13,895 bases of DNA from an uncultured Actinomycetes bacterium (GTDB lineage: Bacteria > Actinomycetota > UBA4738 > HRBIN12): positions 1-13,895 of the forward strand of contig CAVPIB010000012.1 of assembly GCA_963704885.1 (NCBI GenBank). The letters are read 5' to 3'. The translations under genes and the position numbers were made by a program. How positions within the stretch are numbered: position 1 is the stretch's first letter; each line of letters begins with the position of its first letter. This document shows positions 329 through 13,895 of this stretch, piece by piece. The notes beneath the pieces are model-generated. The model was not told the origin of the DNA, searched no databases, and worked only from the letters and a program-made list of their open reading frames with translations.

Positions 329-331
329 CGC

Positions 332-589: not shown

Positions 590-595
590 GGACGA

Positions 596-1410: not shown

Positions 1411-1435
1411 AGCAGGTCGTTCCGGGTGAGTCGAT

Positions 1436-1510: not shown

Positions 1511-1527
1511 CGGTTCGCCTCGCCTCC

Positions 1528-2157
1528 CTACGTCGCCGCCGCGGAGGGGTGGAACAGCGGGACGGCCGGCTTCCAGTCGGCGCGGAGAACCTCGACCATC
1601 GAAGGCAGCGTGACCACGATCGCTCGACCACCCTCGGGTCGCGGCACGCGCTCGACGTAGCCGGCCGGCGACCACCTCGCGAGGCGGGCGCCGACCACGA
1701 CCCATGGTGCGCCCTGCCGCAGGACGAAGGTCCCGTCGGGGAGGTCGTCGATCGGCGCTCCGTGGTGTCGCTGCCCACGCGTCACCGGGTCGACTCGCTC
1801 GGTGTGCAGTTGCACGTCGATCACATCGGCGCCGACCTGGTGCGGATGTTGTTCGCGCCAGATATCAGCGAAGCGCACGTAGTCCTCGCGGCGGCAGAGC
1901 GCGCATGGACGATGTCCGGCGGCGAACGCGGTCGCCTCGTCCAGGAAGAAGAGCTCGGTGAACCGACCCGGCTGCATGAGCGGGTGCCGGTGCCACCCGC
2001 GGAACTCAAGCCGACACGCGATCCAGCGCCTGCCGTTGTACCGGCGGCGGATCCGCCCGGCTTCGTCGTGAAGACAGCCGCGGTTGCCGTAGACGAGCCC
2101 GCGAGCCGGGTCGGCGATCACCTCACTGAACGGTGTGACCCGGTTCTGCAGGGGCAT
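1528..2157 (-). CDS. Conserved hypothetical protein with Ada-like Cys motif (putative Zn-binding)
   Basis: 209 aa with 'MPLQNRVTP', 'GNRGCLH', 'WIACRLEF', 'TELFFLDEATAFAAGHRPCALCR'. The last motif resembles the N-Ada 'FF....A..AGFRPCKRC' motif. GC-rich third codon positions. Confidence 0.8.
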   Translation of the reverse strand: MPLQNRVTPFSEVIADPARGLVYGNRGCLHDEAGRIRRRYNGRRWIACRLEFRGWHRHPLMQPGRFTELFFLDEATAFAAGHRPCALCRREDYVRFADIWREQHPHQVGADVIDVQLHTERVDPVTRGQRHHGAPIDDLPDGTFVLRQGAPWVVVGARLARWSPAGYVERVPRPEGGRAIVVTLPSMVEVLRADWKPAVPLFHPSAAAT

Positions 2158-2175
2158 CAGCGGATCATCTTCGGT

Positions 2176-2709
2176 TCATTGGGCCCGTGATAGCCGGTAG
2201 CGCAGTTCCACGAGGCCCGTGGAGTAGGGCTTCGCGTGGATCAGGTCGGCCGCCGCCGGCCCCGTGCCATCGAAGAGATGCACACCAGCACCCAGCACGA
2301 CGGGCACCATGAACAGGATCAGCTCGTCGATCGCCTGCGCGCCGAGGAACTGGGACGCGAGCTGCGCGCCTCCGACCAGGAACACGTCGCGATCCGTCGT
2401 CTCCCGGATCGACGGCGCCACGTCGGCCACCGCGCCGCTGACGAAGCGGACGGTCGCTACTTCCGGAGCCGGGAGCTCCCGGTGGGTGAAGACCCAGGTC
2501 GGTCGGTTCCCGTACGGCCACTCGCCGCGCGCGACCTCCTGTTCATAGGTGGTGGCACCCATGATCACGGCGTCGACCCCGGAGAGGAACCGTCGGTAGC
2601 CGTGATCCTCGCCTTCGACGTTGAAACGCTCCAGCCAAGCGACACCGCCGTCGGCATCGGCGATGAAGCCGTCCAGGCTCGCCGCGATGAAGAGCACGAT
2701 CTTGCCCAC
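2176..2709 (-). CDS. Dihydrofolate reductase family / RibD C-terminal domain protein
   Basis: 'IAASLDGFIA', 'IMGATTYE', 'VFLVGGAQLA', 'IDELILFMVPVVLGAG..LF', 'GLVELRY'. Confidence 0.9.
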   Translation of the reverse strand: MGKIVLFIAASLDGFIADADGGVAWLERFNVEGEDHGYRRFLSGVDAVIMGATTYEQEVARGEWPYGNRPTWVFTHRELPAPEVATVRFVSGAVADVAPSIRETTDRDVFLVGGAQLASQFLGAQAIDELILFMVPVVLGAGVHLFDGTGPAAADLIHAKPYSTGLVELRYRLSRAQ

Positions 2710-2719
2710 GAACCTAGCC

Positions 2720-2914
2720 CTACGTCAGGATCCACTCGGAGCGCCCGCTGGACCTGTCTCCGGTGAGCCACTGCCAGTCCAGATACATGCGCATCTGATC
2801 TTCCTCGTCCAGCGCGAACCTCTTGTGGGTCCTTCCCGCTTCGACCTCACCGCCCGACGGTCTTTCCCGCAAGATCCACAGCTTCCGCTCCTTCTGGCTA
2901 CCCACCTGAGGCAT
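2720..2914 (-). CDS. Possible small hypothetical protein (64 aa)
   Basis: ATG 2914 opens MPQVGSQKERKLWILRERP...EWILT*, ending 10 nt before the DHFR-family start. No clear SD and no recognisable family. Confidence 0.3.
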   Translation of the reverse strand: MPQVGSQKERKLWILRERPSGGEVEAGRTHKRFALDEEDQMRMYLDWQWLTGDRSSGRSEWILT

Positions 2915-2940
2915 AGTCTCAGAGGTCCGAAGGCGGCGCC

Positions 2941-3007
2941 CCGCTCCTGAACCACAGCCCCGACGGGCTACCCGCGGATGGTCAGATAGAGCCATCCACC
3001 GGAGCAG
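2941..3007 (-). ncRNA. Candidate structured RNA (three-stem junction)
   Basis: Minus-strand stems: CUGCUCC/GGAGCGG (3001-3007 with 2941-2947), GUGGAUGG/CCAUCCGC (2992-2999 with 2974-2981), UAGCCC/GGGCUG (2965-2970 with 2955-2960). Each non-Watson-Crick position is a G-U pair on this strand only. Confidence 0.3.
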
Positions 3008-3086
3008 ACTACCGATGTCCTTCGGGGCAACGAACCCTCCAGAGTCCCGACTCATGAAGAGCGGCCTGCGTGCCGACCATTGCACT

Positions 3087-3401
3087 ATGAGAGAACCGAT
3101 CCCGTTCCTTCGAGAGGCCGCTGTAACTATCGTGCCCCAGCTCTCGGACGAGCAGCTCGAACGCATCGGCGCCGAGCTCGCCTCGCAGAGCAACCCCTTC
3201 CTGCTGGTCAGCCGGGTGAGCGACTGCACGGCGTTGATCCAGGGGATCCCGGTAACCGCCGAGTCGCCGCACGAAGCCGACGCGCTCACGTGGGACATCG
3301 TCCACAGCCATGTGAGCGCAGCCTTGTGTGAACCGTGGGACTGGGACACGACCGTCACCGCGATCGACGTCCGATCGGCCGACGGGGCCCTCGCCTCCTA
3401 G
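3087..3401 (+). CDS. Hypothetical protein (104 aa)
   Basis: MREPIPFLREAAVTIVPQLSDEQLERIG...ADGALAS* with GC-rich third positions. ATG 3087 is preferred over 3015 because GACCAT-N6-ATG precedes it. Confidence 0.6.
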   Translation: MREPIPFLREAAVTIVPQLSDEQLERIGAELASQSNPFLLVSRVSDCTALIQGIPVTAESPHEADALTWDIVHSHVSAALCEPWDWDTTVTAIDVRSADGALAS

Positions 3402-3441
3402 CGCGAACCCGTAGCCGGACCTCGATACGGAAGCGTCGCAG

Positions 3442-3513
3442 AGCCGGAGCGGGGATTCGAACCCCGGACCTACCACTTACGAGGCGGTTGCTCTACCACT
3501 GAGCTACTCCGGC
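3442..3513 (-). tRNA. tRNA-Thr (anticodon CGT)
   Basis: GCCGGAG-TA-GCTCAGTGGTAGAGC-A-ACCGC-CTCGTAA-GTGGT-AGGTC-CGGGG-TTCGAAT-CCCCG-CTCCGGC-T: complete cloverleaf; CCA not encoded. Confidence 0.97.
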
Positions 3514-3530: not shown

Positions 3531-3611
3531 CCGAACGGGTGCTGGCACCACGGGAGGAGCGGCGGTCTGCACGGTCGTCGAGTTGAGCCTCCATCAGCGA
3601 TGATGCCCTCT

Positions 3612-5723
3612 ATGAGCTCCGGCGGAAGCGTCAACATCCAGGGGCAGGTCGGCCGTGTGATGGTGGGGACCGACCGCTCGGAGACCGCCGAGCGCGCCGT
3701 TCGGTGGGCCGCCTCTTTCGCGGAGCTGTACGCCGCCGACCTCCATATCGTTCAGGTGATCGTGCCGCGCAACCCGGCCGACACCGAGTTCGGAGCCGCC
3801 GAGGCCACCCGGGCCCGCGGCGCCGCCGACGAGCTCCAGACCTACGCCACCCAGATCGCGGGCGAGCGCGGCCGCGGCCACGTGGTGATCGACGACGACC
3901 CCGCCATGGCGATCGTGCACGCCACCGAGGAGCACGCTATCGACGTCTTGGTCGTTGGCAACGCGGGGATGGCCGGCCGCAAGGAGTTCCTACTGGGCAA
4001 CGTCCCTAACCGGATCAGCCACAACGCGCGTTGCACCGTGATCATCGTGAACACGGCCGGAGACGGACAGGCGGCCGCGACCGGCGTTCCGCGCGCACCT
4101 GCATCGATCCGCTCAAGCGCCGTCGAGGTCGAGACCGAGCCGCACCTGGTCGCGCGCGGCACCAAGATCGCGAGCGTCTTCGCCAAGCACGGACTGAAGG
4201 AGCTGTTCGGCCGGCCCGACGAGGAGGGATCGGTCGGCAAGGTCCGTCAGGCTAAGCGCCTGCGCTCGGCCCTGGAGGAGCTGGGGCCGACGTTCGCCAA
4301 GATCGGGCAGATCCTGTCCACGCGGCCCGACCTGCTGCCCCCGGAGTTCATCCAGGAGCTGGCCACCCTGCAGGACGACGTGCCACCGCTCTCCGAGGAA
4401 CAGGTGGTCCGGGTCATGGAGCAGGAGCTGGGAGTGCCGTGGGAAGACGTGTTCGACCACATCGAGACTCAGCCGCTGGCCGCAGGCACGATCGCACAGG
4501 TGCATCGGGCCGTGTTGGCGAACGCCGAGCGGGTCGTGATCAAGGTCCAGCGGCCCGACGCCAAAGAGCAGATCGAGCAGGATCTGGCCCTGTTGGAGGT
4601 CTTCGCCGAGAAGGTGAGCCACCGCCCCGGACTCAAGCAGGTGATCGACATGGAGGCGGTGTTCATGCATCTGTCGGAGTCGCTCCATCGCGAGCTGGAT
4701 TTCCGGCAGGAGGCCGGGAACATGCGTCGCCTGGCGGCCGTGATCGAGCCGTTCAGCCGACTGCGGGTACCCGATGTGCACGGCGACTACTCGACGTCGC
4801 GCCTGCTGGTGATGCGCGACGTGGCCGGCGGTCCCCTCTCTTCGGCCCCCGAGGGTGGTCCGCGCAGGGAGGCGGCTCGGCAACTGCTGGAGTCCTTCTA
4901 CAAGCAGATCCTGGTCGACGGCTTCTTCCACGCGGATCCGCATCCCGGGAACCTCATGTGGCAGCCCGAGGAAGAGCTCCTCTACTTCTTAGACCTGGGC
5001 ATGGTCGGCGAGGTCGGCGCCGAGATGCGCGAGCAGATGATGCTGCTGCTCATGGCCTTCTGGCAGGAGGATGTGGGTTTCCTGACCGACGTATCGCTCA
5101 TGCTCGCGGGCGCGATCGATCGCAGCGATCTGGACGTCGACGCGTTCAGCGAGGAGATCGGCGAGCTGATGGCCAAGAACCGCACCGCTTCGCTGAAAGA
5201 CATCCAGTTGGGCCCCGTGCTTCAGGAGATGACTGAGATCTCGATCCGCCACGGCGTGCCGCTGCCGGCGTCGCTCACGCTCACCGGAAAGGCGCTCGCT
5301 CAGATGCAGCTGGCCGCAGCGGAGCTCGACCCCGAGCTGGATCCGTTCGACGTTGCGGGCAGCTTCCTGATGCGCGCCGTGACGAAGGACATAGGTTCGA
5401 AGTTCGATCTGAAGGCGGTCTTCTATCAGACCCAGAAGTTCAGGGTGCGGGCCATGCGGGTGGTCGAGGCGGTGGAGCGTCTGATCGGCGCGAGGCCGGG
5501 ACAGAAGCTGGAGGTCAACTTCCGGGCCTCAACGCTGGAGACGACGATCCGGCGAGCGGGCAGGCGCCTCGCGTTGGGTTTGACCGCGGGCGCGGCCATC
5601 CTGGCGACGTCGCTCTCGGCTTTGTCCGCGCGTGTCGCCGGCTGGGTGCCTGCAGCGTTCGGCGTCGTGGCCGGACTGCTCACGCTGGCGCTGGTCGTCG
5701 ACCTGATCCGGCGGCGCGACTAG
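3612..5723 (+). CDS. Universal stress protein domain fused to ABC1/AarF/UbiB-family atypical kinase, with C-terminal membrane anchor
   Basis: N-terminal USP ('VMVGTDRSETAERAVRWA', 'VVGNAGMAGRKEFLLGNVPNRISHNARCTVIIVNT'), Ala/Pro linker, then UbiB motifs 'LGPTFAKIGQILSTRPDLLP' (KxGQ), 'PLAAGTIAQVHRA', 'VIKVQRP', 'ELDFRQEA', 'GFFHADPHPGN', 'LDLGMVG', and two hydrophobic C-terminal helices. The start could be 3600, 3603 or 3612. Confidence 0.92.
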   Translation: MSSGGSVNIQGQVGRVMVGTDRSETAERAVRWAASFAELYAADLHIVQVIVPRNPADTEFGAAEATRARGAADELQTYATQIAGERGRGHVVIDDDPAMAIVHATEEHAIDVLVVGNAGMAGRKEFLLGNVPNRISHNARCTVIIVNTAGDGQAAATGVPRAPASIRSSAVEVETEPHLVARGTKIASVFAKHGLKELFGRPDEEGSVGKVRQAKRLRSALEELGPTFAKIGQILSTRPDLLPPEFIQELATLQDDVPPLSEEQVVRVMEQELGVPWEDVFDHIETQPLAAGTIAQVHRAVLANAERVVIKVQRPDAKEQIEQDLALLEVFAEKVSHRPGLKQVIDMEAVFMHLSESLHRELDFRQEAGNMRRLAAVIEPFSRLRVPDVHGDYSTSRLLVMRDVAGGPLSSAPEGGPRREAARQLLESFYKQILVDGFFHADPHPGNLMWQPEEELLYFLDLGMVGEVGAEMREQMMLLLMAFWQEDVGFLTDVSLMLAGAIDRSDLDVDAFSEEIGELMAKNRTASLKDIQLGPVLQEMTEISIRHGVPLPASLTLTGKALAQMQLAAAELDPELDPFDVAGSFLMRAVTKDIGSKFDLKAVFYQTQKFRVRAMRVVEAVERLIGARPGQKLEVNFRASTLETTIRRAGRRLALGLTAGAAILATSLSALSARVAGWVPAAFGVVAGLLTLALVVDLIRRRD

Positions 5724-5741
5724 TCCAGCTCAGACTAGTCG
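5717..5741. terminator. Hairpin between convergent genes (possible bidirectional terminator)
   Basis: CGACTAGTC-cagctca-GACTAGTCG: 9-bp perfect stem overlapping the stop at 5723. No U-tract. Confidence 0.4.
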
Positions 5742-5753
5742 GTCGGCCGAAGA

Positions 5754-5954
5754 TCACTGCTCGTCGAGCTTCGCCTCCGTCCCTTTCGTGGTGATGGTCG
5801 TGGGTTCCAGCGGTGTGGCGCCGCCCTTCCTCCTCACCGAGCGCATGACGACCTTCTCCAGCACGAAGGCGATCACCGCCATGATCACGCCGACGGCCCA
5901 GCGTTCGAAACGGCGGATCCCTTTCGGCTTCTTGATCGTGACGTGCCCGGTCAC
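5754..5954 (-). CDS. Small basic single-TM protein (66 aa)
   Basis: GTG start overlaps the kinase stop (GTGA, 5951-5954) with GAGGT upstream. Reads MTGHVTIKKPKGIRRFERWAVGVIMAVIAFVLEKVVMRSVRRKGG...KLDEQ with GC-rich third positions. Confidence 0.7.
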   Translation of the reverse strand: MTGHVTIKKPKGIRRFERWAVGVIMAVIAFVLEKVVMRSVRRKGGATPLEPTTITTKGTEAKLDEQ

Positions 5955-8059
5955 GCGGGCACCTCGGCATCCGGCAGGCGGAGGCGCCCCTCGATCGTCG
6001 TGCCGCGCCCCGGCGCCGATGTGACCACGAGCCCGCCGTCCTGAGCGCCCAGTCGGTCGGCCATCCCCTGCAGACCGGAACCGCCGACGGTTGATGCCGG
6101 ATCGAAGCCGTGACCATCGTCCGCAACGATGAACGTGAGCTCGCGATCGCGTTCGGCGAGCGACACGGTCACCGAGGACGCGTCCGCGTACTTGGCCACG
6201 TTCTGTAGCGCCTCCAGGCACGAGAAGTAGACGGCGGCCTCGACCTCCTGTGGGTAGCGACCTAGCCCGTCGGCCTCGATCTGCACCGGCAGGCCACTCT
6301 TGCGGCCCTGTGCCGCGAGAGCGGCGGCGAGACCCTTATCGGCCAGGAGCGGTGGGTATATGCCCCTCGCCAGGTCTCGCAGGTCCTCGAGTGCGGAGTT
6401 CGTCTCGCCTTGGAGCTGAGCGAGCAACTCATGGGCTTGCGTCGCGTCGCGCTCGACCACGCCATCCGCCAGCCGCAGTTTCACCGACAGCGCCACCAAC
6501 TGTTGCTGCGCGCCGTCGTGGATGTTGCGCTCCAGCTTGCGACGCTCCTCATCCTGGGCCGAGACCAACCGGCGCTGCGCCGCCTTCAGGTCCTCGAGCC
6601 GGGCCTTGAGCTCCTCGGTCAAGCGGACGTTCCGAAGCACCAACCCTGCCTGGGACGCCAGGCCGGCGATCAGCTTCTCATCCGCTGCGGAGACCGGATC
6701 GCTCACCGGTTTGCGCACCGCGAGCGCGCCCAGCAACTCACCGCCCTGTTCGACCGGATAGACGCGGTCGGCACCCTCGATCAGTGGCATCGCGCCGTTC
6801 GCCAAGGGGATCGCCGCTGTGCCGCTCGCGTCTGGAGGCCAGGCCGCGACATCGCGGAGCTCCCGGTCGACCGCCAGCCAGACGTCGGCCCGATCGGCGC
6901 CGACCCCTTCGCCCAGGATGCGGGCCATACGCCGCAAGACGTCTTCGTCGGCGTAGGCCTCCCCCACTCGCTCGGAGAACTCGGAGAGGACCTCGTAAGG
7001 TGTCGCGCGCTTGCCGTACACCAATCGGTTCGCGAACCGACCGGCCCGGTTGCGTATCGGGAAGATCAGCAACCCGATCGCCAGGCCGATCAGCACCTGC
7101 CAAGCATCTACGCCCGACCCTGAGCCGCGTCCGAGCACGATGGTCGGCAGGGCGATCGCCACCATCAGGTAGAAGGCCGTCACCGCCACGACCACCGTAG
7201 CGAAGATCACGGTCTTCTTGATCACGACGTCCAGGTCGTAGAGGTGGAAACGAAGAACGGCGATGCCGATCGAGAGCGGGAACATGAGGAAGGCCAGCCC
7301 ACCGATCACGGCACTCAGCACCCCTGTCTGGCTGAAGAAGCTGCTGATGACGATCGCCGCGAGGGCGGCCCCGAAGCCGAACACCACCCACTTGATCTGC
7401 TGGCGCTCCACGCCCGCCGACCTGCGGAAGCGGAGGATCAACGAGACGACCGAGGCCGCGAAGATCGCGGGGTACATGATCCCGATGATCGGGTCTAGGT
7501 CAGGCAGGCTCCCAACCGCGTCGACGTAAAGGGGGTTCACCGTCTCGACGTCCCCCGAACCGGTCAGGGTTGGTTGCCCGAACACGAGGCCGACCGCGAT
7601 AAGGGCGACTAACGCCGCGATCACCCACAGCAACGGTCGCCATCTCCTTGATGGGAGATGGCCGTCCGGGAACAACAGCGGCAGGAGGAACACGGTCAGC
7701 AGGATCCCGAAGAGCCACCCCGCGCCGTTGATGAGGCCACTCGATGTGACCCACCAATCGTCGTATCCACGAGGCACCGCGTACGTGAGGATCTCTCCGG
7801 AGAGGAAGGACGCGGCCGTCATGAACGACGCCCACATGAGGAGGAACCCGATAGTGTTCCGTCTGTCGCGGCTGAGGATGAGCGCGCCGACCACGCCGAA
7901 CATCGAGAACGCGATCACGTACGGGATCTGCTCGGCAAGGGACTCGCCGTTGAGCTCGACGAGGACCATGCTGGCCGTCGCCACCACAAGGAAGCCGGCG
8001 AAAACCACCCAGGGCCACCGCGCCGGACGCGCGATCTCCACCTCAGCCGAGGACGACAC
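5951..8059 (-). CDS. Multi-TM sensor histidine kinase (HisKA_3/NarL-type) with GAF-like region; HK1
   Basis: About 9 hydrophobic segments, H-box 'ERRKLERNIHDGAQQQL', N-box 'EALQNVAKYA', G1 'DDGHGF', G2 'GSGLQGMADRL'. GTG 8059 has GGAGG 6 nt upstream and overlaps the end of the cyclase gene. Confidence 0.93.
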   Translation of the reverse strand: MSSSAEVEIARPARWPWVVFAGFLVVATASMVLVELNGESLAEQIPYVIAFSMFGVVGALILSRDRRNTIGFLLMWASFMTAASFLSGEILTYAVPRGYDDWWVTSSGLINGAGWLFGILLTVFLLPLLFPDGHLPSRRWRPLLWVIAALVALIAVGLVFGQPTLTGSGDVETVNPLYVDAVGSLPDLDPIIGIMYPAIFAASVVSLILRFRRSAGVERQQIKWVVFGFGAALAAIVISSFFSQTGVLSAVIGGLAFLMFPLSIGIAVLRFHLYDLDVVIKKTVIFATVVVAVTAFYLMVAIALPTIVLGRGSGSGVDAWQVLIGLAIGLLIFPIRNRAGRFANRLVYGKRATPYEVLSEFSERVGEAYADEDVLRRMARILGEGVGADRADVWLAVDRELRDVAAWPPDASGTAAIPLANGAMPLIEGADRVYPVEQGGELLGALAVRKPVSDPVSAADEKLIAGLASQAGLVLRNVRLTEELKARLEDLKAAQRRLVSAQDEERRKLERNIHDGAQQQLVALSVKLRLADGVVERDATQAHELLAQLQGETNSALEDLRDLARGIYPPLLADKGLAAALAAQGRKSGLPVQIEADGLGRYPQEVEAAVYFSCLEALQNVAKYADASSVTVSLAERDRELTFIVADDGHGFDPASTVGGSGLQGMADRLGAQDGGLVVTSAPGRGTTIEGRLRLPDAEVPA

Positions 8060-9320
8060 GGAACACCTCCACTGGTTCCTCACGCCCCTTCACGTGACGC
8101 GTTCCGATGGGTTCGCTCGCGACACTCGGCGCCGCGGCGACGGTCGACGCTGCGGCCACGATCTCGCCGCCCTCGGCCTCGGACTGCAACCGCTGGGCGA
8201 TGTTCACGGCGTCGCCCACAACCGTGTACTCGAGGCGGCCACCTCCTCCGACCGTCCCGGCGATCACCAGACCGGTGTTCACGCCGATCCCGACCCTGAG
8301 CTCCGGAACGTCTGCGTCCCAGCCCTGCGTGTTCAGCTCCGCTTGGCGCTGTTGCATGGCGATCGCGCAGCGCAGCGCTCGTTCGGCGTGATCGGATGTG
8401 GGCTCAGGAGCTCCGAAGACGACCATCACAGCATCCCCCTGGAACTTGTCGATCATGCCGCCCATCGACAGGACCACCTCCGCCATCGCGGTGAGGTGCT
8501 TGCCGACGACCGTCGCGACGATTCGCGCGGGGAGGCGTTCGGCGAGCGTCGAGAACCCTCGGATGTCCGAGAACAGGACGCTAACCTCTACCTCCTGCGG
8601 CTCGATGGCGATGTCGGGGTGCGCGGCCAACCGATCGGCCAGCTGTTGTGGGACGAACGACGCGAGCGTCTTGCGGGAGGTCGTCTGCTCGACGACGGCT
8701 GCGTGGAGGCGCTTGAACTCGTCCACGAGCCCGGCACCGGCACCGTCGCCGGCCATCCGCTTGAACAACGCGGTGACCTGCGAATCGACGGCCTCTTGGG
8801 TGGTCCCCAGCGCCTCTGCGATCTCCGCGTAGCCAAGACCCTTGGCCATCATGTCGAGCAACTCGCGCTCACGCTCTACCGTGTCGCCGCGGCCCGACAG
8901 GCGCTCGGCGATCGTCGGATCCACGGTGCTGCCTCCCGCGTGTACCTCTCGGATCGCACGAGCGAGCTCGTCGCCCTGGGAGATGCGGTCCTTCAAGAGG
9001 TAGGCCAGGCCGCTATGACCGCCGCCGAGCAAGGCGAGCGCGTAGGCCTCGTCGTCGTGGGCAGACAGGACGACGACGCCGGTATCGGGGTGCGAAGAGC
9101 GGATCGCGTGCGCGCAATCGATCCCCTCCAGCTGGAACGACGGCGGCATCTTGATGTCGGTCACGACGACGTCGGGCGTATGCTCGGCGGCGGTCTCCAG
9201 CAGCGAGGGCGCGTCGACCGCGACCCCGACCACCTCGATGTCTTCGTAGGAATCCAGCAGCGCCCGGACGCCTTCGCGTACGAGGACGTTGTCCTCCCCA
9301 AGCACGACCCGGATGCTCAT
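8043..9320 (-). CDS. Response regulator (REC + degenerate LuxR HTH) fused to a class III adenylate cyclase
   Basis: REC with E9/D10, D55, S86, K110. HTH-like 'ERERELLDMMAKGLGYAEIAEALG'. Cyclase 'VLFSDIRGFS' (D252), 'IDKFQGD' (K292, D296), 'EYTVVGDAVNIAQR' (T366, N373, R377), 'VKGREEPV'. GGAGG 7 nt upstream of the ATG. Confidence 0.93.
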   Translation of the reverse strand: MSIRVVLGEDNVLVREGVRALLDSYEDIEVVGVAVDAPSLLETAAEHTPDVVVTDIKMPPSFQLEGIDCAHAIRSSHPDTGVVVLSAHDDEAYALALLGGGHSGLAYLLKDRISQGDELARAIREVHAGGSTVDPTIAERLSGRGDTVERERELLDMMAKGLGYAEIAEALGTTQEAVDSQVTALFKRMAGDGAGAGLVDEFKRLHAAVVEQTTSRKTLASFVPQQLADRLAAHPDIAIEPQEVEVSVLFSDIRGFSTLAERLPARIVATVVGKHLTAMAEVVLSMGGMIDKFQGDAVMVVFGAPEPTSDHAERALRCAIAMQQRQAELNTQGWDADVPELRVGIGVNTGLVIAGTVGGGGRLEYTVVGDAVNIAQRLQSEAEGGEIVAAASTVAAAPSVASEPIGTRHVKGREEPVEVFRVVLG

Positions 9321-9352
9321 CCCGCTGCCTCCGACCGCTCGATGCCCGCGTG

Positions 9353-9358
9353 TACCAT
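9353..9358 (+). promoter_or_regulatory. -10 box (TACCAT), probable leaderless promoter of the response regulator
   Basis: TACCAT-ccgcgc-ATG(9365), with no SD sequence. Confidence 0.55.
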
Positions 9359-9364
9359 CCGCGC

Positions 9365-10033
9365 ATGATCCGCGTTGTGTTCGCCGAGGATAACTACCTG
9401 GTCAGGGAGGGGACGGCAGCCCTCCTGGCCACCTCGGATCAGATCGAGCTGGTCGGAACCGCGACCACGCGCGACGAGCTGCTCTCGGCCGTCGAGGAGC
9501 ACTCCCCCGACGCGGTCCTCACGGACATCCGCATGCCCCCGACCGGGACCAACGAGGGCATCGAGGCCGCGAAGACGATCCGCTCCACCCACCCGGCGAT
9601 CGGTGTGGTCGTGTTGTCGCAGTTCGTCGAGGAGGACTACGCGTTCGACCTGCTGAAGGACGGCGCCGCCGGCCTCGGCTATCTGCTCAAGGAGCGGGTC
9701 GCCGACGTGGACGAGCTGGTTAGGGCGCTGGGAGAGGTCGCCCGTGGAGGCAGCGTGCTCGACCCCAAGGTCGTCGAGGCGCTCGTCTCGGCCAAGGAGC
9801 GCATGGCGCACTCGCCCCTCGCGCAGCTGACCGATCGCGAACGCGAGGTGCTCTCGCACATGGCGCAAGGAGAGAACAACGCGGCGATCGCCAAGTCGCT
9901 CTTCCTCACCGAACGCGCCGTCGAGAAGCACATCAACTCCCTTTTCCACAAGCTGGGTCTCACGGAGGAGCCCGACGTGCACCGCCGGGTGATGGCAGTG
10001 CTCGCGTTCCTCCGCGAGACCGGCGACGCCTGA
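9365..10033 (+). CDS. NarL/FixJ-family DNA-binding response regulator (REC + LuxR HTH)
   Basis: 'MIRVVFAEDNYLVREG', 'VLTDIRMPP' (D54), 'GYLLKERV', 'LTDREREVLSHMAQGENNAAIAKSLFLTERAVEKHINSLFHKLGL'. Confidence 0.95.
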   Translation: MIRVVFAEDNYLVREGTAALLATSDQIELVGTATTRDELLSAVEEHSPDAVLTDIRMPPTGTNEGIEAAKTIRSTHPAIGVVVLSQFVEEDYAFDLLKDGAAGLGYLLKERVADVDELVRALGEVARGGSVLDPKVVEALVSAKERMAHSPLAQLTDREREVLSHMAQGENNAAIAKSLFLTERAVEKHINSLFHKLGLTEEPDVHRRVMAVLAFLRETGDA

Positions 10034-10035
10034 CA

Positions 10036-10443
10036 TCACTGCGCTCGGCGCGTATCCACGATGAACACCGAGCAAGGCGCGTGGCGCAGGATCATGTTCG
10101 GGACGCTGTCGCGAACGTGCCACCGTCCGCCCTGCGCCCCTCGGTTGCCCACCACGATCGTTTCCGCCAGCTCCTCGGCCGCCACCTCACAGATGCGCTC
10201 GGCCGGCTCTCCTCGCTCAACGCGAGTGCGGGCCGCGACGTCGGGGAACCGCGTCGCTATCCGAGCCAGGTACGCGGAGGGGTCCGCCGCCCGATCGGGG
10301 TCGACCACCGCACGCAGTTCGGACTCGGGCTGCACGTACAGGACCAATAGCTCGGCCCCACGGTCGCGTGCTAGCCGGGCGGCGCTCTCTACGGCCAGAT
10401 CGGCCGCTGCGGATGTATCCGTTCCTACCAAGACGGTGCTCAT
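10036..10443 (-). CDS. Universal stress protein (single domain, 135 aa)
   Basis: ATG 10443 with GAGGAGG upstream. 'MSTVLVGTDTSAAADLAV..A..LA', 'GEPAERICEVA', 'IVVGNRG', 'SVPNMILRHAPCSVFIVDT'. Confidence 0.92.
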   Translation of the reverse strand: MSTVLVGTDTSAAADLAVESAARLARDRGAELLVLYVQPESELRAVVDPDRAADPSAYLARIATRFPDVAARTRVERGEPAERICEVAAEELAETIVVGNRGAQGGRWHVRDSVPNMILRHAPCSVFIVDTRRAQ

Positions 10444-10521
10444 CTGGGGCCTCCTCACTCGTCGCCCCGAACGTACGCTCGGGGGAAGGCGGGGACAGCC
10501 CGGCCGCCACCACCGTTTCCA

Positions 10522-10555
10522 GTGGGTAGCACCACCCACCGGCGGTGGTCTCCAC
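10522..10555. promoter_or_regulatory. GTGG/CCAC inverted-repeat cluster, candidate regulator binding site
   Basis: GTGG-gtagca-CCAC (10522-10535), CCACC-ggc-GGTGG (10536-10548) and GTGG-tct-CCAC (10545-10555) lie in the divergent USP / kinase-operon intergenic region. Confidence 0.4.
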
Positions 10556-10617
10556 TCGCGAACGAAGGCGGGTACCGCCCTTCCGGCCGGGGCTGCGAGG
10601 GGGCGACAATCCGGGGC

Positions 10618-10758
10618 ATGACGACGACCATGGAGGGACGGCCTCAGCTGGCCTTGACCCTGGCCATCACAGGCTCGGTCATCGGAACGCTCATCGCCGG
10701 GAGCCAGCAGCGTCTCACGATGCGTCATCCGATGGTAGGCGCGGAGGACGCATCGTGA
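10618..10758 (+). CDS. Small hydrophobic peptide (46 aa) leading the kinase operon
   Basis: MTTTMEGRPQLALTLAITGSVIGTLIAGSQQRLTMRHPMVGAEDAS*. GACAAT-N7-ATG upstream; its stop overlaps the HK2 start (GTGA, 10755-10758). Confidence 0.5.
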   Translation: MTTTMEGRPQLALTLAITGSVIGTLIAGSQQRLTMRHPMVGAEDAS

Positions 10759-12971
10759 GTCCCGCGACAGCGAAACGCCTTTCGCGCGGGATCATCGGGG
10801 TCGCGCTCGTGATGATCGCGATCTCGCTCTTCGTCGGCATCGCGTCCTCCAAGCACCAACAGCCGGGGCGCATCTTCATCGTCGGTGATGCGACCGTCGG
10901 TGACGGGCCGCTGGTTCATAAGGCGCTCATCGAACGCCAGACGGAGGGCGAGACGTTCACGGTCGGAGCGGTCAACCCGCAGATCGTGATCGCGTTGGTC
11001 GTCGGTCTGCTCTGGATGATCACCGGATCGCTGATCGTGTCGCGCCAGCCGCGGAACGCCGCGGGCTGGATCTTCCTCGCGATCGGTGTTGCCCTCCCTC
11101 TCAGTGGCATGGCCACCACGCTCGCCGTGACGGGTGTGAAGACCGTTGCCGCCTCGGTGCCGCTGGTCGGTCTCTGGGCGGTCGTCAACGAATACAGCTC
11201 CCTTCCGGTCGTCCTGCTCCCCCTGCTCTTCCTGCTCTTCCCCGACGGACGGCCGCCCACGCCTCGCTGGCGATGGGCCGAGCGTGCTTTGTTCGCGGGG
11301 CTCGCGATCGCCATCGTGGGGTTCACGCTGTCCCCGGGGCCACTGAACAACCTCGTCGACCCCGGCATCCTGTACGAGAACCCGATCGGGATCCCCGCGT
11401 TCGCCGGCGTGTCCGACGCGATGACGACGATCGGCGTCGTGTTGTGCCTCATCGCCGGCTTCTCCACGGTCTTCGCGGTCCGAGGTCGCTTCAAGCGCTC
11501 GACGGGCGAGGAACGCCAACAGCTCCGCTGGCTCGTGTTCGTAGCGACGACCGCCGGGATCTTGTTCACGATCCTCTTCGGGATCACCGTCCCCGGCGAT
11601 GTCATCGGCCCGGTGTTCGGAAGCTTGCCGATCTTCGCCGTCCTCTTCCTCCTCCTGGCCGTCGTGATCGCGTTCGGCGTTCCCGGCGCCTACCTGGTCG
11701 CGATCTTCCGATACGGGCTGTGGGAGCTGGACGTCGTGGTGCGCAAGACGATCGTGTATGTGGTACTGGCCTTCCTGCTGCTCGGGACCGGGATCGCGTT
11801 CGTCTGGTTCATAACCGGACTGTTCGCCTCGACGGCTGCGTCGAACGGAAGGGTGGACCTGCTGGCGGGTGTGGCGATCGGTCTGTTGTTCTGGCCGCTT
11901 CGCAAGCTCGCGGTCAGGGTCGCCGATCGTCTCGTCTACGGGGGGCGAGCCACGCCCTACGAGGTTCTGACCTCGTTCGCAGGACGGGTTGGGGAGACAT
12001 ATTCGACCGACGACATCTTGCCCCGGATGGCGCAGGTGCTGGCGAAGGGAGTCGGGGCACAAGGGGCGACGGTGTGGCTCCGGGTCGGGAACGAGCTCCG
12101 CCCCGCCATGACCTGGCCGGTCGGCGCGCCGGATCCGGCTCCGGTGAGGCTGACCGCAGACGCTTTGCCAGTGATCTCCGATCAGCACGCGTCCGAGGTG
12201 AGAGATCAGGGCGAGCTCTTGGGCGCGCTCTCCGTGGCGATGTCCGCCTCGGATCCGATGACGCCCGGGAAGGAAAGGCTGGTCCGCGACCTAGCGTCAC
12301 AAGCCGGACTGGTCCTCCGAAACGTACGCCTGATAGAGGAGCTCCGGGCGTCGCGACAACGACTGGTCACCGCGCAGGACGAGGAGCGGCGCAAGCTCGA
12401 GCGCAACATCCACGACGGAGCGCAGCAGCAGCTGGTCGCCCTCGCGGTCAAGCTCCGGTTAGCGGACACGTTGATGGAACGCGACCCCACGAAGGCCCAC
12501 GAGCTGATGACGCAGCTGCAAGCAGAGACCCACGATGCGTTGGAGGATCTGCGCGACCTCGCACGTGGGATCTATCCGCCGCTGCTCGCGGACAAGGGAT
12601 TGCCTGCCGCACTCGAGGCCCAGGCCAGGAAGGCGGCCGTGCCGACAACGGTGGTCGCCGACGGCGTGACTCGGCACTCGCAGGACGTGGAGGCCGCGGT
12701 CTACTTCTCCTGTCTGGAGGCGATGAGCAACGTCGCGAAGTACGCCTACGCGGCCAGCGCATCCATCGAACTGACCCAAGCCAACGGCCACCTCACATTC
12801 GTGGTCAAGGACGACGGGCGGGGGTTCGATACGCAGGCCAACGGCTACGGAACGGGGCTGCAGGGGATCGCGGATCGGCTCGATGCGATCGGCGGAACGC
12901 TGTCGGTAGCCAGCCGAACGGGAGCTGGGACGACGATCACCGGCACGGTGCCGGAGGCGGTGGAACGATGA
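10755..12971 (+). CDS. Multi-TM sensor histidine kinase (HisKA_3/NarL-type) with GAF-like region; HK2
   Basis: GTG 10755 with GGAGG at 10743-10747. Multi-TM N-terminal half, 'ERRKLERNIHDGAQQQL', 'EAMSNVAKYA', 'DDGRGF', 'GTGLQGIADRL'. Paralog of HK1. Confidence 0.93.
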   Translation: MSPATAKRLSRGIIGVALVMIAISLFVGIASSKHQQPGRIFIVGDATVGDGPLVHKALIERQTEGETFTVGAVNPQIVIALVVGLLWMITGSLIVSRQPRNAAGWIFLAIGVALPLSGMATTLAVTGVKTVAASVPLVGLWAVVNEYSSLPVVLLPLLFLLFPDGRPPTPRWRWAERALFAGLAIAIVGFTLSPGPLNNLVDPGILYENPIGIPAFAGVSDAMTTIGVVLCLIAGFSTVFAVRGRFKRSTGEERQQLRWLVFVATTAGILFTILFGITVPGDVIGPVFGSLPIFAVLFLLLAVVIAFGVPGAYLVAIFRYGLWELDVVVRKTIVYVVLAFLLLGTGIAFVWFITGLFASTAASNGRVDLLAGVAIGLLFWPLRKLAVRVADRLVYGGRATPYEVLTSFAGRVGETYSTDDILPRMAQVLAKGVGAQGATVWLRVGNELRPAMTWPVGAPDPAPVRLTADALPVISDQHASEVRDQGELLGALSVAMSASDPMTPGKERLVRDLASQAGLVLRNVRLIEELRASRQRLVTAQDEERRKLERNIHDGAQQQLVALAVKLRLADTLMERDPTKAHELMTQLQAETHDALEDLRDLARGIYPPLLADKGLPAALEAQARKAAVPTTVVADGVTRHSQDVEAAVYFSCLEAMSNVAKYAYAASASIELTQANGHLTFVVKDDGRGFDTQANGYGTGLQGIADRLDAIGGTLSVASRTGAGTTITGTVPEAVER

Positions 12972-13895
12972 AAGGGAGTCGCTGGACCCGTTGGCTGGCG
13001 CTTGGGATCTGGCTCGTCACGCTCCTCCTGTTGTTGCTCGCCGTCATCCTGTCGATCGGCGACCCGGCGAACGAGGTGAAGGACCTGCCGTTCGCCCTCG
13101 GCTTGGGGGTCGGCATGCTGGCCTTCGGCACGATCGGCGCGGTCCTCGCGACCCAGGCACCGAGGAACCCGATCGGATGGCTCTACGGGCTCGCCGCGTT
13201 CGGCGTGGTCCTCAGCGTGAGCGCGGAGCAGTACGCCATCCGAGGGCTCGAGGACCTGACCAACCTGCCGGCCGTTCCGTACATCTACTGGTTGCACCAG
13301 GTCATCACCCCGATCGCGATGTCGCTCATCCCGATCGCGCTCGTTCTCTTCCCCGACGGCCACCTCCTCTCTCGGCGCTGGCGTCCGATCCTGTGGTCCC
13401 TGTTCGCCGCGGCGGTGCTGGGATCGTTCGCGTCGGCGTTCTTCGAAGACATGTTTCAGGTCGGCGAGTCCGCGTACGTGAGGAACCCGTTCAGCATCGG
13501 ATCCGGAGCTGGCGATCGTCTCTGGCCACTGCTGATCGGCCTGCTGCTGGTGGGGATCGTGGGATCGCTCTCGTCGGTGATGATCCGATACCGCAGGTCC
13601 GAGGCAGAGCAGCGCCAGCAGCTCCGTTGGCTGGCCGCCGCCGTGCTGGTCATCGGCGTCGCGGGTGTCGTTGCGCTCGCGATCGGCTTCCTGCCGCCAA
13701 CCGATGTGACCGGGATCCTGAGCGCCGTCGCAGGCTATGTCATGTTGGCCGCCGCAACGATCGGACTCCCCGCCGCGACCGCGGTCGCGATCCTGCGGTA
13801 CCACCTCTACGACCTCGACCTGGTCGTGAAGAAGACGGTCGTGTTCACGATCGTGGCGGTATTCCTCACTGGCCTCTACATAGCGGCTCTGGCGT
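12968..13895 (+). CDS. Third paralogous multi-TM sensor, probably a histidine kinase; HK3 (3' truncated by the window edge)
   Basis: Absent from the ORF track (no stop in the window). ATG overlaps the HK2 stop (ATGA). Manual translation MKGSRWTRWLALGIWLV...PRNPIGWLY...LFPDGHLLSRRWRP...RYRRSEAEQRQQLRW...AILRYHLYDLDLVVKKTVVF shares the membrane-domain motifs of HK1 and HK2. The kinase core lies outside the window. Confidence 0.88.
   Translation, partial: MKGSRWTRWLALGIWLVTLLLLLLAVILSIGDPANEVKDLPFALGLGVGMLAFGTIGAVLATQAPRNPIGWLYGLAAFGVVLSVSAEQYAIRGLEDLTNLPAVPYIYWLHQVITPIAMSLIPIALVLFPDGHLLSRRWRPILWSLFAAAVLGSFASAFFEDMFQVGESAYVRNPFSIGSGAGDRLWPLLIGLLLVGIVGSLSSVMIRYRRSEAEQRQQLRWLAAAVLVIGVAGVVALAIGFLPPTDVTGILSAVAGYVMLAAATIGLPAATAVAILRYHLYDLDLVVKKTVVFTIVAVFLTGLYIAALA

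Follow-up and report, generated by a model that had tools for sequence, protein, structure and literature searches.

A signalling gene cluster with paralogous sensor kinases, a receiver-linked adenylate cyclase and USP genes in uncultured Actinomycetota: a putative DevR/OsdR-type system with a cAMP branch

The window, i.e., the whole stretch of DNA which was analysed (13,895 nucleotides), encodes only signalling proteins between positions 3600 and 13895, as judged from Pfam searches and the reading of open reading frames (ORFs). These are a USP-UbiB/ABC1 fusion, three paralogous membrane HisKA_3 kinases, a NarL/DevR-like regulator, a paralogue of this regulator consisting of a receiver (REC) and an adenylate cyclase, a USP of 135 amino acids and a small membrane ORF. 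A reading of the letters alone (the sequence-only reading) had described about 10 kb of signalling genes, and this content was matched by the Pfam domains and by paralogy. The features are as follows:

3441..3513, minus strand: tRNA-Thr, anticodon CGT (ARAGORN; Rfam tRNA, 72.4 bits)
3534..3553, no strand assigned: palindromic candidate operator, core GGTGCTGGCACC, a 7-2-7 inverted repeat (20.3 bits)
3600..5723, plus strand: USP-UbiB/ABC1 fusion, 707 aa (Pfam ABC1 213.6 bits, Usp 85.3 bits)
5754..5942, minus strand: small single-pass membrane ORF, 62 aa, hydrophobic segment 15–33 (tblastn conservation)
5951..8083, minus strand: HK1, sensor histidine kinase (Pfam HisKA_3 47.2 bits, HATPase_c 29.9 bits)
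8043..9320, minus strand: response-regulator paralogue fused to a class IIIb adenylate cyclase, 425 aa (Pfam, PDB matches, AlphaFold, Foldseek)
9365 (or GTG 9350)..10033, plus strand: NarL/DevR-like DNA-binding response regulator (Pfam Response_reg 58.1 bits, GerE 53.0 bits)
10036..10443, minus strand: USP2, stand-alone USP, 135 aa, with the variant motif G-x2-G-x9-D-S (Pfam Usp 89.1 bits)
10520..10539, no strand assigned: palindrome before USP2 in degenerate form (aligned with the closest loci)
about 10755..12971, plus strand: HK2, sensor histidine kinase, paralogue of HK1 (Pfam HisKA_3 50.2 bits, HATPase_c 36.6 bits)
12968..13895, plus strand: HK3, third paralogous kinase, truncated at the window end, with only its N-terminal membrane domain inside (tblastn)

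For comparison 80 related loci were used, which came from different species-level genomes, all of them uncultured Actinomycetota MAGs. The kinases number three in the window and from zero to six per related locus. By hydropathy and Pfam, HK1 consists of about nine hydrophobic segments, a GAF-like region, HisKA_3 and HATPase_c; its C-terminal half matches DesK (1.4e-11), and no named family was matched by its sensor domain. The longest ORF of HK2 opens at 10545, with GTG 10755 as the probable start, and HK2 contains about ten hydrophobic segments; the start of HK3, which has eight such segments, overlaps the stop codon of HK2 (ATGA). Identities are 49% over 575 aa between HK1 and HK2, 33% over 275 aa between HK1 and HK3, and 32% between HK2 and HK3. 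The GAF matches of the kinases fall below the cut-off of Pfam. The annotated start of HK1 overlaps the stop of the cyclase gene, and both genes probably belong to one operon. Two small hydrophobic ORFs had been pointed out in the sequence-only reading, of which one stood: ORF 5754–5942, downstream of HK1 and convergent with the USP-UbiB gene, gave 48 tblastn matches in related loci, each of them located between the final downstream kinase and USP-UbiB, and matched no Pfam or NCBIfam family. The other (10618–10758) had no significant match in the search of related loci and is not conserved.

The regulator has DevR as its best solved relative (3c3w, 3.4e-24). Its gene is divergent from the cyclase gene across a gap of 44 bp, in which a TACCAT box 6 nt before the ATG suggests a leaderless mRNA; an intergenic word, GGATGGTA / ACCATCCG, was present between the two genes in 42 of 68 loci. 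The cyclase protein is 47% identical to the regulator over 196 aa and is composed of a receiver (1–141, with D55), a three-helix LuxR-like remnant (147–190), a linker helix (196–220) and the cyclase domain (242–422). Pfam scores were 84.0 bits for Guanylate_cyc and 58.5 bits for Response_reg, while the GerE match of 22.1 bits was under the cut-off of 23.5. The protein matches CyaB, Cya2 and CyaC by sequence (PDB). The AlphaFold model (mean pLDDT 84.8) contains the receiver, the three helices, the long helix and the cyclase; Foldseek aligned it with CyaB (target-normalised TM 0.90, rmsd 1.5 Å) and, over 236 columns, with a phytochrome-cyclase fusion, including the linker helix of the latter.

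All six canonical class III catalytic residues are kept in the cyclase. Among 43 family members D252, D296, N373 and R377 are invariant, T366 is found in 42 and K292 in 37, this substrate lysine being replaced by Q or E in six; the receiver residues D10, D55, S86 and K110 occur in 43 of 43, and the linker helix is conserved. These findings bear out that one of two paralogous receivers carries an intact cyclase, and the residue alignment placed the receiver aspartate at D55, both as proposed from the letters alone; the proposed division into a transcriptional arm (9365–10033) and a cAMP arm (8043–9320) likewise fits the anatomy. In a distant homologue (P0127) the cyclase protein has a C-terminal domain with 58% identity to the stand-alone receiver (REC1), which is part of the cluster, outside the window, in 41 of the 80 loci. 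Such a fusion would be a further tie between the cyclase and a phosphorelay.

The USP-UbiB protein begins with a USP domain (about 19–150); a UbiB-type atypical kinase/ATPase domain follows, and the C-terminus has two hydrophobic helices (657–675 and 685–703). Of 40 orthologues 39–40 keep the USP motif G-x2-G-x9-G-N and the residues of the UbiB catalytic loop, and the best 120 homologues all contained both PF00582 and PF03109. The NCBIfam UbiB score is 327.8 bits, under the equivalog cut-off of 487.55; thus, the protein is not an orthologue of the ubiquinone-pathway UbiB. No publication describing a USP-UbiB fusion came up in a literature search.

The regulator and cyclase genes were adjacent and divergent in 75 of 75 testable loci. 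An orthologue of USP2 was present in 60 of 72, and USP-UbiB in 37 of the 41 loci whose downstream flank extended over 9 kb or more; its linkage survives two rearranged contexts, where it lies directly downstream on the same strand (L075) or beside the regulator (L062). The sequence-only reading had named unlinked cyclase and USP-UbiB genes in related genomes as an observation against itself; since they are linked in 37 of 41 loci, this objection fails. The tRNA-Thr gene, just left of the point where that reading had let the cluster begin and divergent from USP-UbiB, is a conserved left boundary, which adjoins USP-UbiB in 39 related loci (twice in L004). The five window ORFs to the left of it had a tblastn match in none of the 80 loci, so that the conserved block stops at the tRNA. 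The block persists at 63–92% protein identity and stays intact while kinase copy number and 3.6-kb insertions vary within it. Around cyclase genes of less than 70% identity USP2 was found in 0 of 10 loci and USP-UbiB in one of four with enough flank, so that only the regulator/cyclase pair is universal. Also, part of the synteny may be simple inheritance, because all 80 loci stem from one uncultured lineage. Judged by sequence comparison, the locus is a real conserved unit and not a chance run of signalling genes; by the same measure the region makes up the greater part of a signalling island which is conserved in an uncultured lineage of soil Actinomycetota and has tRNA-Thr as its boundary on one side.

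A 7-2-7 palindrome, GGGGTGC-YR-GCACCCC, stands at a fixed distance upstream of the genes for USP2, USP-UbiB and the stand-alone receiver. The copy at 3534–3553 is the only site in the window of at least 8 bits. Its centre lies 56 bp upstream of the ATG of USP-UbiB, and the 5' end of the tRNA is about 30 bp away; the site could act on the tRNA gene instead, since the gap of 86 bp is shared with this divergent gene. The exact 12-mer is present a single time in the window, and none of 200 dinucleotide-preserving shuffles contained it; with up to two mismatches there are eight occurrences, which is close to chance (shuffle mean 3.2; 6 of 200 shuffles reach eight). Upstream of USP2, at 10520–10539, the left half-site is intact and the right half disrupted; no site of at least 4 bits was found there by the matrix, and the closest loci carry GGGGTGCTGGCACCCC at this place. 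In 1.19 Mb of sequence 115 sites of at least 12 bits were counted versus a mean of 18.6 in five shuffles, and 96 of the 115 lay upstream of the three gene classes. A site was present upstream of USP2 in 50 of 57 loci (81–111 bp from the start) and upstream of USP-UbiB in only 18 of 37, an enrichment which is partly circular, because the matrix was built from the sites of these two genes; it was also present upstream of the stand-alone receiver in 28 of 36, whose sites had been left out of the matrix. No site was found between the regulator and cyclase genes (0 of 72 loci), unlike DevR and OsdR, and hence there is no sign of autoregulation. A reading of the palindrome as an RNA hairpin was ruled out by its 2-nt spacer. 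Most likely it is the operator of the DNA-binding regulator of the cluster.

The reading which we prefer, with a rough probability of 0.55, is a conserved stress two-component system of the DevR/OsdR type (NarL family), in which many sensors feed a branched output that includes a built-in cAMP branch. The paralogous polytopic HisKA_3 kinases would be expected to phosphorylate the two divergently transcribed paralogous receivers. One of them is an ordinary DNA-binding regulator (9365–10033); the other (8043–9320) retains three LuxR helices next to its receiver, and the place of the last helix is taken by the linker helix and an adenylate cyclase of class IIIb. Once D55 is phosphorylated, the receiver would dimerise and thereby bring together the cyclase dimer, whose active sites lie at the dimer interface, yielding cAMP. 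The genes for USP, USP-UbiB and the stand-alone receiver would be tied in mainly as a small regulon by the palindrome. USP-UbiB is, on this reading, a membrane-anchored UbiB-type ATPase or atypical kinase with a nucleotide-binding regulatory domain, which probably tunes membrane lipid or quinone handling under the stress that is presumably sensed.

A different role for the USPs had been proposed from the letters alone: cAMP from the receiver-gated cyclase would be read locally by both USPs, the fused one gating UbiB/ABC1, in a self-contained pathway. The linkage of cyclase and USP-UbiB, also in the two rearranged contexts, is in favour of this proposal, as is the conservation of the fused USP motif. 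Both USPs, which are 32% identical over 137 aa, keep the equivalents of the cAMP-contacting G10 and G114 of MSMEG_3811 (G7/G99 in USP2, G23/G120 in the fused USP); however, the same glycines are present in ATP-binding USPs, no sequence feature was found which sets the window USPs apart from the latter, and the best solved relative of both is the ATP-binder Rv2623, ahead of Rv1636. USP2 (whose longer ORF to 10728 is an Arg/Pro-rich extension without a match) departs from the nucleotide motif at the third glycine, for which 40 of 55 orthologues have D and 14 have E, while the alignment has Gly in Rv2623; an acidic residue might, speculatively, disfavour a triphosphate. Within a sub-clade the cluster also takes in a cNMP-binding protein and a further multi-USP redox fusion, which shows that USP modules recur near the cyclase. 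A dedicated reader, where the cluster encodes one, is nevertheless a canonical cNMP-binding domain: a protein of 139 aa adjoins USP-UbiB in five loci and ends the kinase array in L067. With such a protein in six related loci and the stand-alone receiver in relatives, the circuit is not self-contained in the window. In PMC11107214, Rv1636-type cAMP-binding USPs are said to be limited to Mycobacterium, Corynebacterium and Nocardia, and Rv1636 is read as a cAMP-sequestering protein or buffer, not as a switch. The shared candidate operator is a simpler reason for the linkage, and local reading of cAMP by the USPs appears doubtful. cAMP binding by them is possible, but the label "cAMP-type USP" was an interpretation which is not visible in the letters; the stress-protein genes look more like transcriptional targets than proven cAMP sensors. 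As far as comparative genomics can tell, what links the USP genes with the system is a shared candidate operator and not cAMP binding, as in DevR/OsdR regulons.

The modules might also be neighbours by descent only, the two-component system, cyclase paralogue, USP and USP-UbiB being independent and not yet separated. The single lineage of origin, the lack of USP2 and USP-UbiB around most of the divergent cyclases and the frequency of USP genes in actinobacterial genomes would agree with this; yet synteny breaks exactly at the tRNA, the block withstands divergence, insertions and changes in kinase number, USP-UbiB stays beside the pair after rearrangement, and one operator is common to three genes, which makes mere descent unlikely. 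If the palindrome were bound by a cAMP-responsive CRP/FNR-like factor encoded elsewhere, the cAMP arm would switch on the genes for USP, USP-UbiB and the stand-alone receiver. GC-rich palindromes of 16 bp are a geometry which dimers of the CRP family also use, and the promoter of the regulator lacks the site; but the spacing of the half-sites (GTG-N10-CAC, 7-2-7) is 2 bp off the CRP consensus TGTGA-N6-TCACA, 7-2-7 is the classical NarL geometry, no CRP-type gene was found in the window or in the annotated loci, and the cNMP-binding proteins of related loci lack a DNA-binding domain. Such a factor is quite improbable here, although a Crp-like gene in the OsdR regulon of Streptomyces, according to PMC5069765, indicates that cross-talk of this kind exists. 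Finally, the cyclase-fused paralogue could be chiefly a phosphate sink or competitor, with a cyclase that is weak, constitutive or regulated other than by D55, e.g., by the stand-alone receiver. The two receivers are 47% identical and probably served by the same kinases, the stand-alone receiver is frequent in the clusters and fused to the cyclase protein in P0127, and six family members carry Q or E in place of the substrate lysine. On the other hand, the invariance or near-invariance of the catalytic residues and the conserved linker helix argue for selection on regulated catalysis, and receiver-controlled class III cyclases are known (CyaC), so that a sink must be considered very improbable.

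The preferred reading, a DevR/OsdR-type system with a cAMP branch, can be placed beside several known systems. Rv1636/MSMEG_3811 has a single USP fold with glycines contacting ribose and cyclic phosphate, which align in the window USPs; the latter are no closer to it than to ATP-binding USPs, USP2 has D or E for the third motif glycine, and Rv1636 is a stand-alone protein, whereas one window USP is fused to an enzyme. With the UbiB/Coq8/ABC1K family the fusion shares the ABC1 domain (213.6 bits), the C-terminal membrane helices and, in its orthologues, conserved motifs which we take to be the lysine-x-Gly-Gln stretch, the Ala-rich loop, the HADPHPGN catalytic loop and DLG; it differs by its N-terminal USP domain.

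In mycobacterial cyclase-ATPase-LuxR proteins (Rv0386 type) a class III cyclase is joined to a LuxR-type helix-turn-helix, as in the window protein, but the order is reversed, with the cyclase first, a STAND ATPase between and the helix-turn-helix last, and a receiver domain is absent. Cyanobacterial CyaC was reportedly described by Kasahara and Ohmori, in a paper of 1999 cited by PMC1183210, as a receiver-controlled class III cyclase with phosphorylation-based activation. Like CyaC and the Rec-GGDEF diguanylate cyclases, the window protein has a receiver upstream of a cyclase that requires dimerisation for its activity, and the sequence and fold of its cyclase domain match those of CyaC, CyaB and Cya2. 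Its receiver, however, belongs to the NarL subfamily, and between receiver and cyclase three helices of the LuxR DNA-binding domain remain; the polypeptide lacks a histidine-kinase domain and has the adjacent transcription factor as a recent paralogue. Phosphorylation-driven dimerisation is presented as the accepted activation logic for receiver-regulated nucleotide cyclases in PMC8041772.

Close parallels are also DevR (DosR)/DevS/DosT of M. tuberculosis and OsdR/OsdK of Streptomyces coelicolor, two-component systems for dormancy or stress. Common to these and the window are a NarL-family regulator (DevR being the best solved match), two or more HisKA_3 kinases with a GAF-like region that feed it, a cluster of USP genes around the system, and a GC-rich palindromic box of 16–20 nt roughly 80–100 bp upstream of USP genes. 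According to PMC5069765, the USP genes around the two-component system of OsdR have, at about –80 to –100, a GC-rich palindrome of 16 nt to which OsdR binds, USP genes are transcriptional targets in DevR/OsdR regulons, and OsdK serves a second regulator, too; six of the ten USPs of M. tuberculosis are placed in the DosR regulon by PMC2914252. The window kinases differ in being polytopic membrane proteins with an unnamed sensor domain, whereas those of the known systems are soluble haem-GAF proteins; the OsdR box is AGGGCCGATCGGCCCT versus GGGGTGC-YR-GCACCCC, and the box is lacking at the regulator's own promoter. In addition, the window cluster has a divergent paralogue of the regulator fused to an adenylate cyclase, a USP fused to a UbiB enzyme and tandem arrays of kinase genes.

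Codon-position G+C gave a single clear gene per stretch of the window (about 67% G+C), and by family profile searches the DNA from 3600 to the window end contains signalling genes exclusively. The features are the following, the tRNA gene lying just left of USP-UbiB:

3441-3513 (-), tRNA-Thr (CGT)
3600-5723 (+), USP-UbiB/ABC1 fusion (USP-UbiB)
5754-5942 (-), single-pass membrane ORF, 62 aa
5951-8083 (-), kinase HK1
8043-9320 (-), receiver / LuxR-like / adenylate-cyclase protein (cyclase protein)
9365-10033 (+), NarL-type regulator
10036-10443 (-), USP2, 135 aa
about 10755-12971 (+), kinase HK2
12968 to window end, membrane domain of kinase HK3, its ATG overlapping the HK2 stop codon

HK1 is 49% identical to HK2 and 33% to HK3; identity is 47% between the receivers and 32% between the USP domains. 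These values and the family searches confirm the all-signalling locus with paralogous kinases and receivers and two USP domains that had been proposed in the sequence-only reading. Two small hydrophobic ORFs had also been counted; the one at 5754-5942 is conserved, whereas the one at 10618-10758 gave no significant tblastn match in 80 related loci and was dropped as a gene. Longer forms of USP2 (230 aa, to 10728) and HK2 (808 aa, from 10545) were set aside in favour of the shorter ones, since their Arg/Pro-rich extensions overlap each other and match nothing. Rfam was searched for known RNAs such as riboswitches in the 310 bp that separate USP2 from HK2, with the tRNA as its only match, and no cNMP-binding or CRP gene was found among the window ORFs scanned. 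Window positions 1-3400 carry an ORF of the deazaflavin (F420)-dependent nitroreductase family (898-1410, +), a reductase with a RibD_C domain (2176-2709, -) and several ORFs with coding-like G+C and no family (1528-2157, 2720-3358); none of these flank genes was found near the cluster in relatives.

Residues 1-190 of the cyclase protein align with the neighbouring regulator over the receiver and three LuxR-domain helices. The GerE profile scores 22.1 bits (cut-off 23.5; model positions 5-45 of 57) in the cyclase protein and 53.0 bits in the regulator. An AlphaFold model built from a 43-sequence alignment (mean pLDDT 84.8) contains the following parts:

1-141, receiver
147-159, 164-171 and 175-190, three helices, then a Gly-rich loop
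196-220, long linker helix
242-422, cyclase

The Gly-rich loop and the linker helix replace the fourth LuxR helix in the model; because of this and the GerE score below cut-off, the protein is best described as a probable derivative of NarL/FixJ response regulators rather than a full member. The cyclase domain reaches 84.0 bits with the Guanylate_cyc profile (Pfam cut-off 21.9), its sequence matches include CyaB (3r5g, 1.4e-31), Cya2 and CyaC, and Foldseek placed it on CyaB of P. aeruginosa with a target-normalised TM of 0.90 and an rmsd of 1.5 Å; linker and cyclase together matched a phytochrome-cyclase fusion across 236 columns.

Class III cyclases possess two metal-binding Asp, a transition-state Asn and Arg, and a substrate-defining Lys and Thr, with Thr in place of Asp being the mark of subclass IIIb. 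Both metal-binding aspartates (D252, D296) and both transition-state residues (N373, R377) are present in 43/43 family members, the substrate lysine K292 in 37 and T366 in 42 of the 43. The receiver residues D10, D55, S86 and K110 occur in all 43 and are invariant also in the alignment including the regulator. Because all six catalytic and all four receiver residues are kept in the window's protein, it is predicted to have a NarL-type receiver and, after it, a class IIIb adenylate cyclase, both intact; Pfam, the fold match and the catalytic residues thus agree with the earlier proposal of a receiver paralogue bearing an intact cyclase. Duplication and fusion would appear to have turned a transcription factor into a second-messenger enzyme, with the sister copy keeping the DNA-binding role. 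Receiver-controlled cyclases are already a known kind; CyaC is reportedly a class III cyclase under receiver control. Rec-GGDEF proteins are another such kind, according to one report (PMC8041772). No paper describing a NarL-receiver/HTH-remnant/cyclase protein or a USP-UbiB fusion was found in a literature search that had most subscription journals outside its reach.

The kinases have 8-10 hydrophobic segments each, together with a GAF-like stretch, HisKA_3 and HATPase_c. The single GAF-like match per kinase scores 17.6-17.9 bits, under the cut-off of 22.4. For the sensor domain no Pfam family was obtained; it fell into unnamed atlas clusters, with a weak and untrusted lead to HisKA_7TM at 0.84.

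A word-indexed search with the cyclase protein returned 6184 matches, the best 120 of which (413-432 aa, 81-97% identical) all contain receiver and cyclase and come, where a source is named, from uncultured Actinomycetota. An exhaustive search of representatives at 50% identity showed whole-protein coverage in four of the best 150 (P0121, P0125, P0127, P0131), the remaining rows being fragments or single-domain matches. With few full-length distant matches and many close ones, the architecture is abundant but phylogenetically narrow. USP-UbiB shows a like pattern, its best 120 matches all carrying both domains; for each of the key proteins, identity to the window's copy is 76-100% among the best 120 homologues, which stem from many separate contigs.

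The genome scan yielded the 80 loci, each from a different species-level genome, all MAGs of one lineage and mostly from soil projects; window proteins were mapped onto them by tblastn and counts were restricted to loci with enough flank. The usual order is a kinase array (reverse), USP (forward), regulator (reverse), cyclase protein (forward), zero to three kinases (forward), the small ORF (forward), USP-UbiB (reverse) and tRNA-Thr. Only the regulator/cyclase pair is universal among the loci, with the two genes adjacent and divergent in 75/75. USP2 was found in 60 of 72 loci (60/62 at cyclase-protein identities of at least 70%, 0/10 below). USP-UbiB occurs in 37 of the 41 loci with at least 9 kb downstream (36/37 and 1/4, respectively), so that the neighbourhood check proposed with the sequence-only reading turned out in favour of linkage between cyclase and USP-ABC1, and the refuting outcome, unlinked genes, was not seen. 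Among divergent loci, USP-UbiB lies directly downstream of the pair on the same strand in L075 and adjoins the regulator in L062. Kinase copies within 10 kb on each side number from 0 to 6 (30 loci with full flanks); these copy-number changes and a 3.6-kb insertion in a sub-clade leave the block unbroken. Since the five ORFs that lie to the left of the tRNA in the window had no tblastn match in any of the 80 loci, and tRNA-Thr adjoins USP-UbiB in 39 loci, the block is a unit with a sharp edge.

The tRNA-Thr (window 3441-3513; for example, 15986-16058 in locus L001) marks a sharp synteny break, with the cluster side kept in these 39 loci and the far side different even in the closest relative, L001 (cyclase protein 92% identical), which suggests that the region at the tRNA is variable or insertion-prone. 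Past the tRNA, L001 encodes a 1240-aa protein (16061-19783, -) that combines double zinc ribbons, TPR repeats and an AAA_16 ATPase with a class III cyclase, i.e., a second, unrelated cyclase beside the cluster that is absent from the window. Locus L004 (14356-20141) has two tRNA-Thr copies and also two matches resembling USP-UbiB (identity 87% and 55%) with a palindrome (GGGGTGC-YR-GCACCCC, treated below) at each, as if the boundary module had been duplicated locally. Downstream of the most divergent cyclase genes lie other neighbours, namely a SpoIIE/PP2C phosphatase (L076, 11464-12720) and a Cu/Zn superoxide dismutase (L067, 11313-11873).

Relatives possess additional parts. In 41 of the 80 loci, the kinase array has a stand-alone receiver at its far end (about 125 aa; 81.5 bits with Pfam Response_reg), the copy of L005 being the query and the other copies 65-96% identical to it; the window ends before that position. 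The distant cyclase-protein homologue P0127 (561 aa) carries a C-terminal domain (444-558) with 58% identity to the stand-alone receiver, against only 30% to the receiver at its own N terminus; this fusion points to a functional link of the stand-alone receiver with the cyclase protein. The 3.6-kb insertion (L032, 14331-17940) is a three-gene set between the small ORF and USP-UbiB in six loci (L026, L028, L030, L032, L033, L034). It encodes a cupredoxin/DUF2269 membrane protein, a USP-USP-Rieske-ferredoxin-reductase fusion of 776 aa and a 139-aa protein consisting of a cyclic-nucleotide-binding domain only, the last detected in five of the six (not in L028); a protein of the same kind stands at the kinase-array end in L067. 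Judging from these proteins, a cluster-encoded cAMP reader, where there is one, would be canonical.

USP-UbiB is a member of the wider ABC1/UbiB family (Pfam, 213.6 bits). Its scores of 327.8 against TIGR01982 (cut-off 487.55) and 261.8 against NF003404 (cut-off 667) lie under the equivalog cut-offs, and because of this it is taken, on profile scores, as no orthologue of the ubiquinone-pathway UbiB.

The palindrome GGGGTGC-YR-GCACCCC surfaced from 8-mer counts in orthologous upstream regions, and a matrix was built from 41 instances, all upstream of USP2 or USP-UbiB. The single window site of at least 8 bits (3534-3553, 20.3 bits) is centred 56 bp before the USP-UbiB ATG, and in the window's copy at USP2 the right half is lost. 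The window has one copy of the exact 12-mer, which appeared in 0 of 200 dinucleotide-preserving shuffles; at up to two mismatches, the window count is close to the chance level. Across the 80 loci, 115 sites of at least 12 bits were counted, compared to a mean of 18.6 in mononucleotide shuffles, and 96 of the 115 are upstream of three gene classes: USP2 (50/57 loci, at a distance of 81-111 bp and a median of 89 bp from the start codon), USP-UbiB (18/37) and the stand-alone receiver (28/36). The receiver-gene sites were absent from matrix building and thus are independent confirmation. Between regulator and cyclase genes, 0 of 72 intergenic regions had a site of at least 12 bits. An RNA hairpin was ruled out, as the loop would be only 2 nt, and this spacer makes the palindrome a candidate DNA operator for a dimeric protein; a 7-2-7 geometry is that of NarL-family regulators. 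Since the window site lies within the 86-bp gap common to USP-UbiB and the divergent tRNA gene, it may act on the tRNA promoter as well.

Two other upstream regions showed conserved features. At window 10438-10520 and in aligned loci, a block of about 20 nt right after the USP2 palindrome is near-invariant in all six aligned sequences (consensus ACCGTGGTGGCGGCCGGG); after it come a -10-like box containing TACGT and an AAGGAGG ribosome-binding site. The regulator and cyclase genes, which diverge, are only 44 bp apart (9321-9364), with a TACCAT box 6 nt before the regulator ATG, which suggests a leaderless regulator transcript; the word GGATGGTA / ACCATCCG is present between the two genes in 42 of 68 loci.

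We consider it somewhat better than an even chance (about 0.55) that the cluster is a DevR/OsdR-like multi-kinase system in which the regulator, as a DNA-binding arm, would control the genes for USP, USP-UbiB and the stand-alone receiver, while a separate cAMP arm would run beside it via the cyclase protein. The sequence-only reading had placed the USPs downstream of the cyclase as cAMP readers. Its real unit, branched output and intact cyclase stand; the USPs as readers do not fare as well, the nearest solved structure to both being the ATP binder Rv2623 and not Rv1636 (4.7e-10 vs 7.9e-9 for the fused USP, 3.6e-8 vs 3.2e-5 for USP2). Both can be aligned to MSMEG_3811 (5ahw) and Rv1636 (1tq8) and have equivalents of G10 and G114, glycines contacting cAMP in these proteins according to PMC11107214. 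These equivalents are unspecific, because ATP-binding USPs carry the same glycines.

ATP-binding USPs have the motif G-2x-G-9x-G-S/T, which is complete in neither protein: USP2 has G-x2-G-x9-[D/E]-S, with an acidic residue for the third glycine in 54 of 55 orthologues, and the fused USP has the near match G-x2-G-x9-G-N (39-40 of 40 orthologues). A step from cAMP to a USP is therefore possible but purely hypothetical, and one could imagine a dormancy-type two-component system with its own second-messenger branch, the surrounding USP modules serving as its local receptors for cAMP. The paralogue fused to the cyclase, once phosphorylated, would then raise cAMP, which would bind the USP domain fused to the membrane UbiB enzyme and also the variant USP2, whose acidic substitution would exclude ATP; lipid or quinone handling would be switched directly by cAMP, and the DNA-binding paralogue would raise the amounts of the same proteins. 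If this were true, the range of cAMP-binding USPs would extend well past mycobacteria, and for the first time a UbiB-family enzyme would have a defined physiological regulator. We regard it as rather improbable; the transcriptional link is the better-supported explanation for the presence of the USP genes.

UbiB/ABC1 proteins and universal stress proteins are very widespread, and their regulation and biochemical roles are poorly understood. Here, both are in one compact, conserved cluster under a cAMP-making two-component system, in a lineage abundant in soil metagenomes. The cluster offers a testable set of questions: the pairing of kinases with the three receivers, cyclase switching by receiver phosphorylation via the helix-turn-helix remnant, the reader of the palindrome, and binding of cAMP by the USPs.

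A comparison with DevR/OsdR systems shows likenesses and differences. Six of ten USPs of M. tuberculosis belong to the DosR regulon, as stated in PMC2914252. For Streptomyces, PMC5069765 describes most USP genes as near osdRK, OsdK as serving two regulators, and OsdR as binding AGGGCCGATCGGCCCT, a GC-rich palindrome of 16 nt located at about -80 to -100 relative to USP genes. In the present cluster, a GC-rich palindromic box, with binding predicted, likewise is found upstream of the neighbouring USP genes, and the regulator is nearest to DevR among solved structures (3c3w, 3.4e-24, just ahead of VraR, 2.3e-23, in a sequence search). However, the box differs in sequence from that of OsdR and is not found at the regulator's own promoter, and the kinases are membrane proteins in tandem arrays instead of soluble, gas-sensing kinases with haem in tandem GAF domains. 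Unlike those systems, too, the cluster has a regulator paralogue turned adenylate cyclase and a USP fused to a UbiB-family enzyme.
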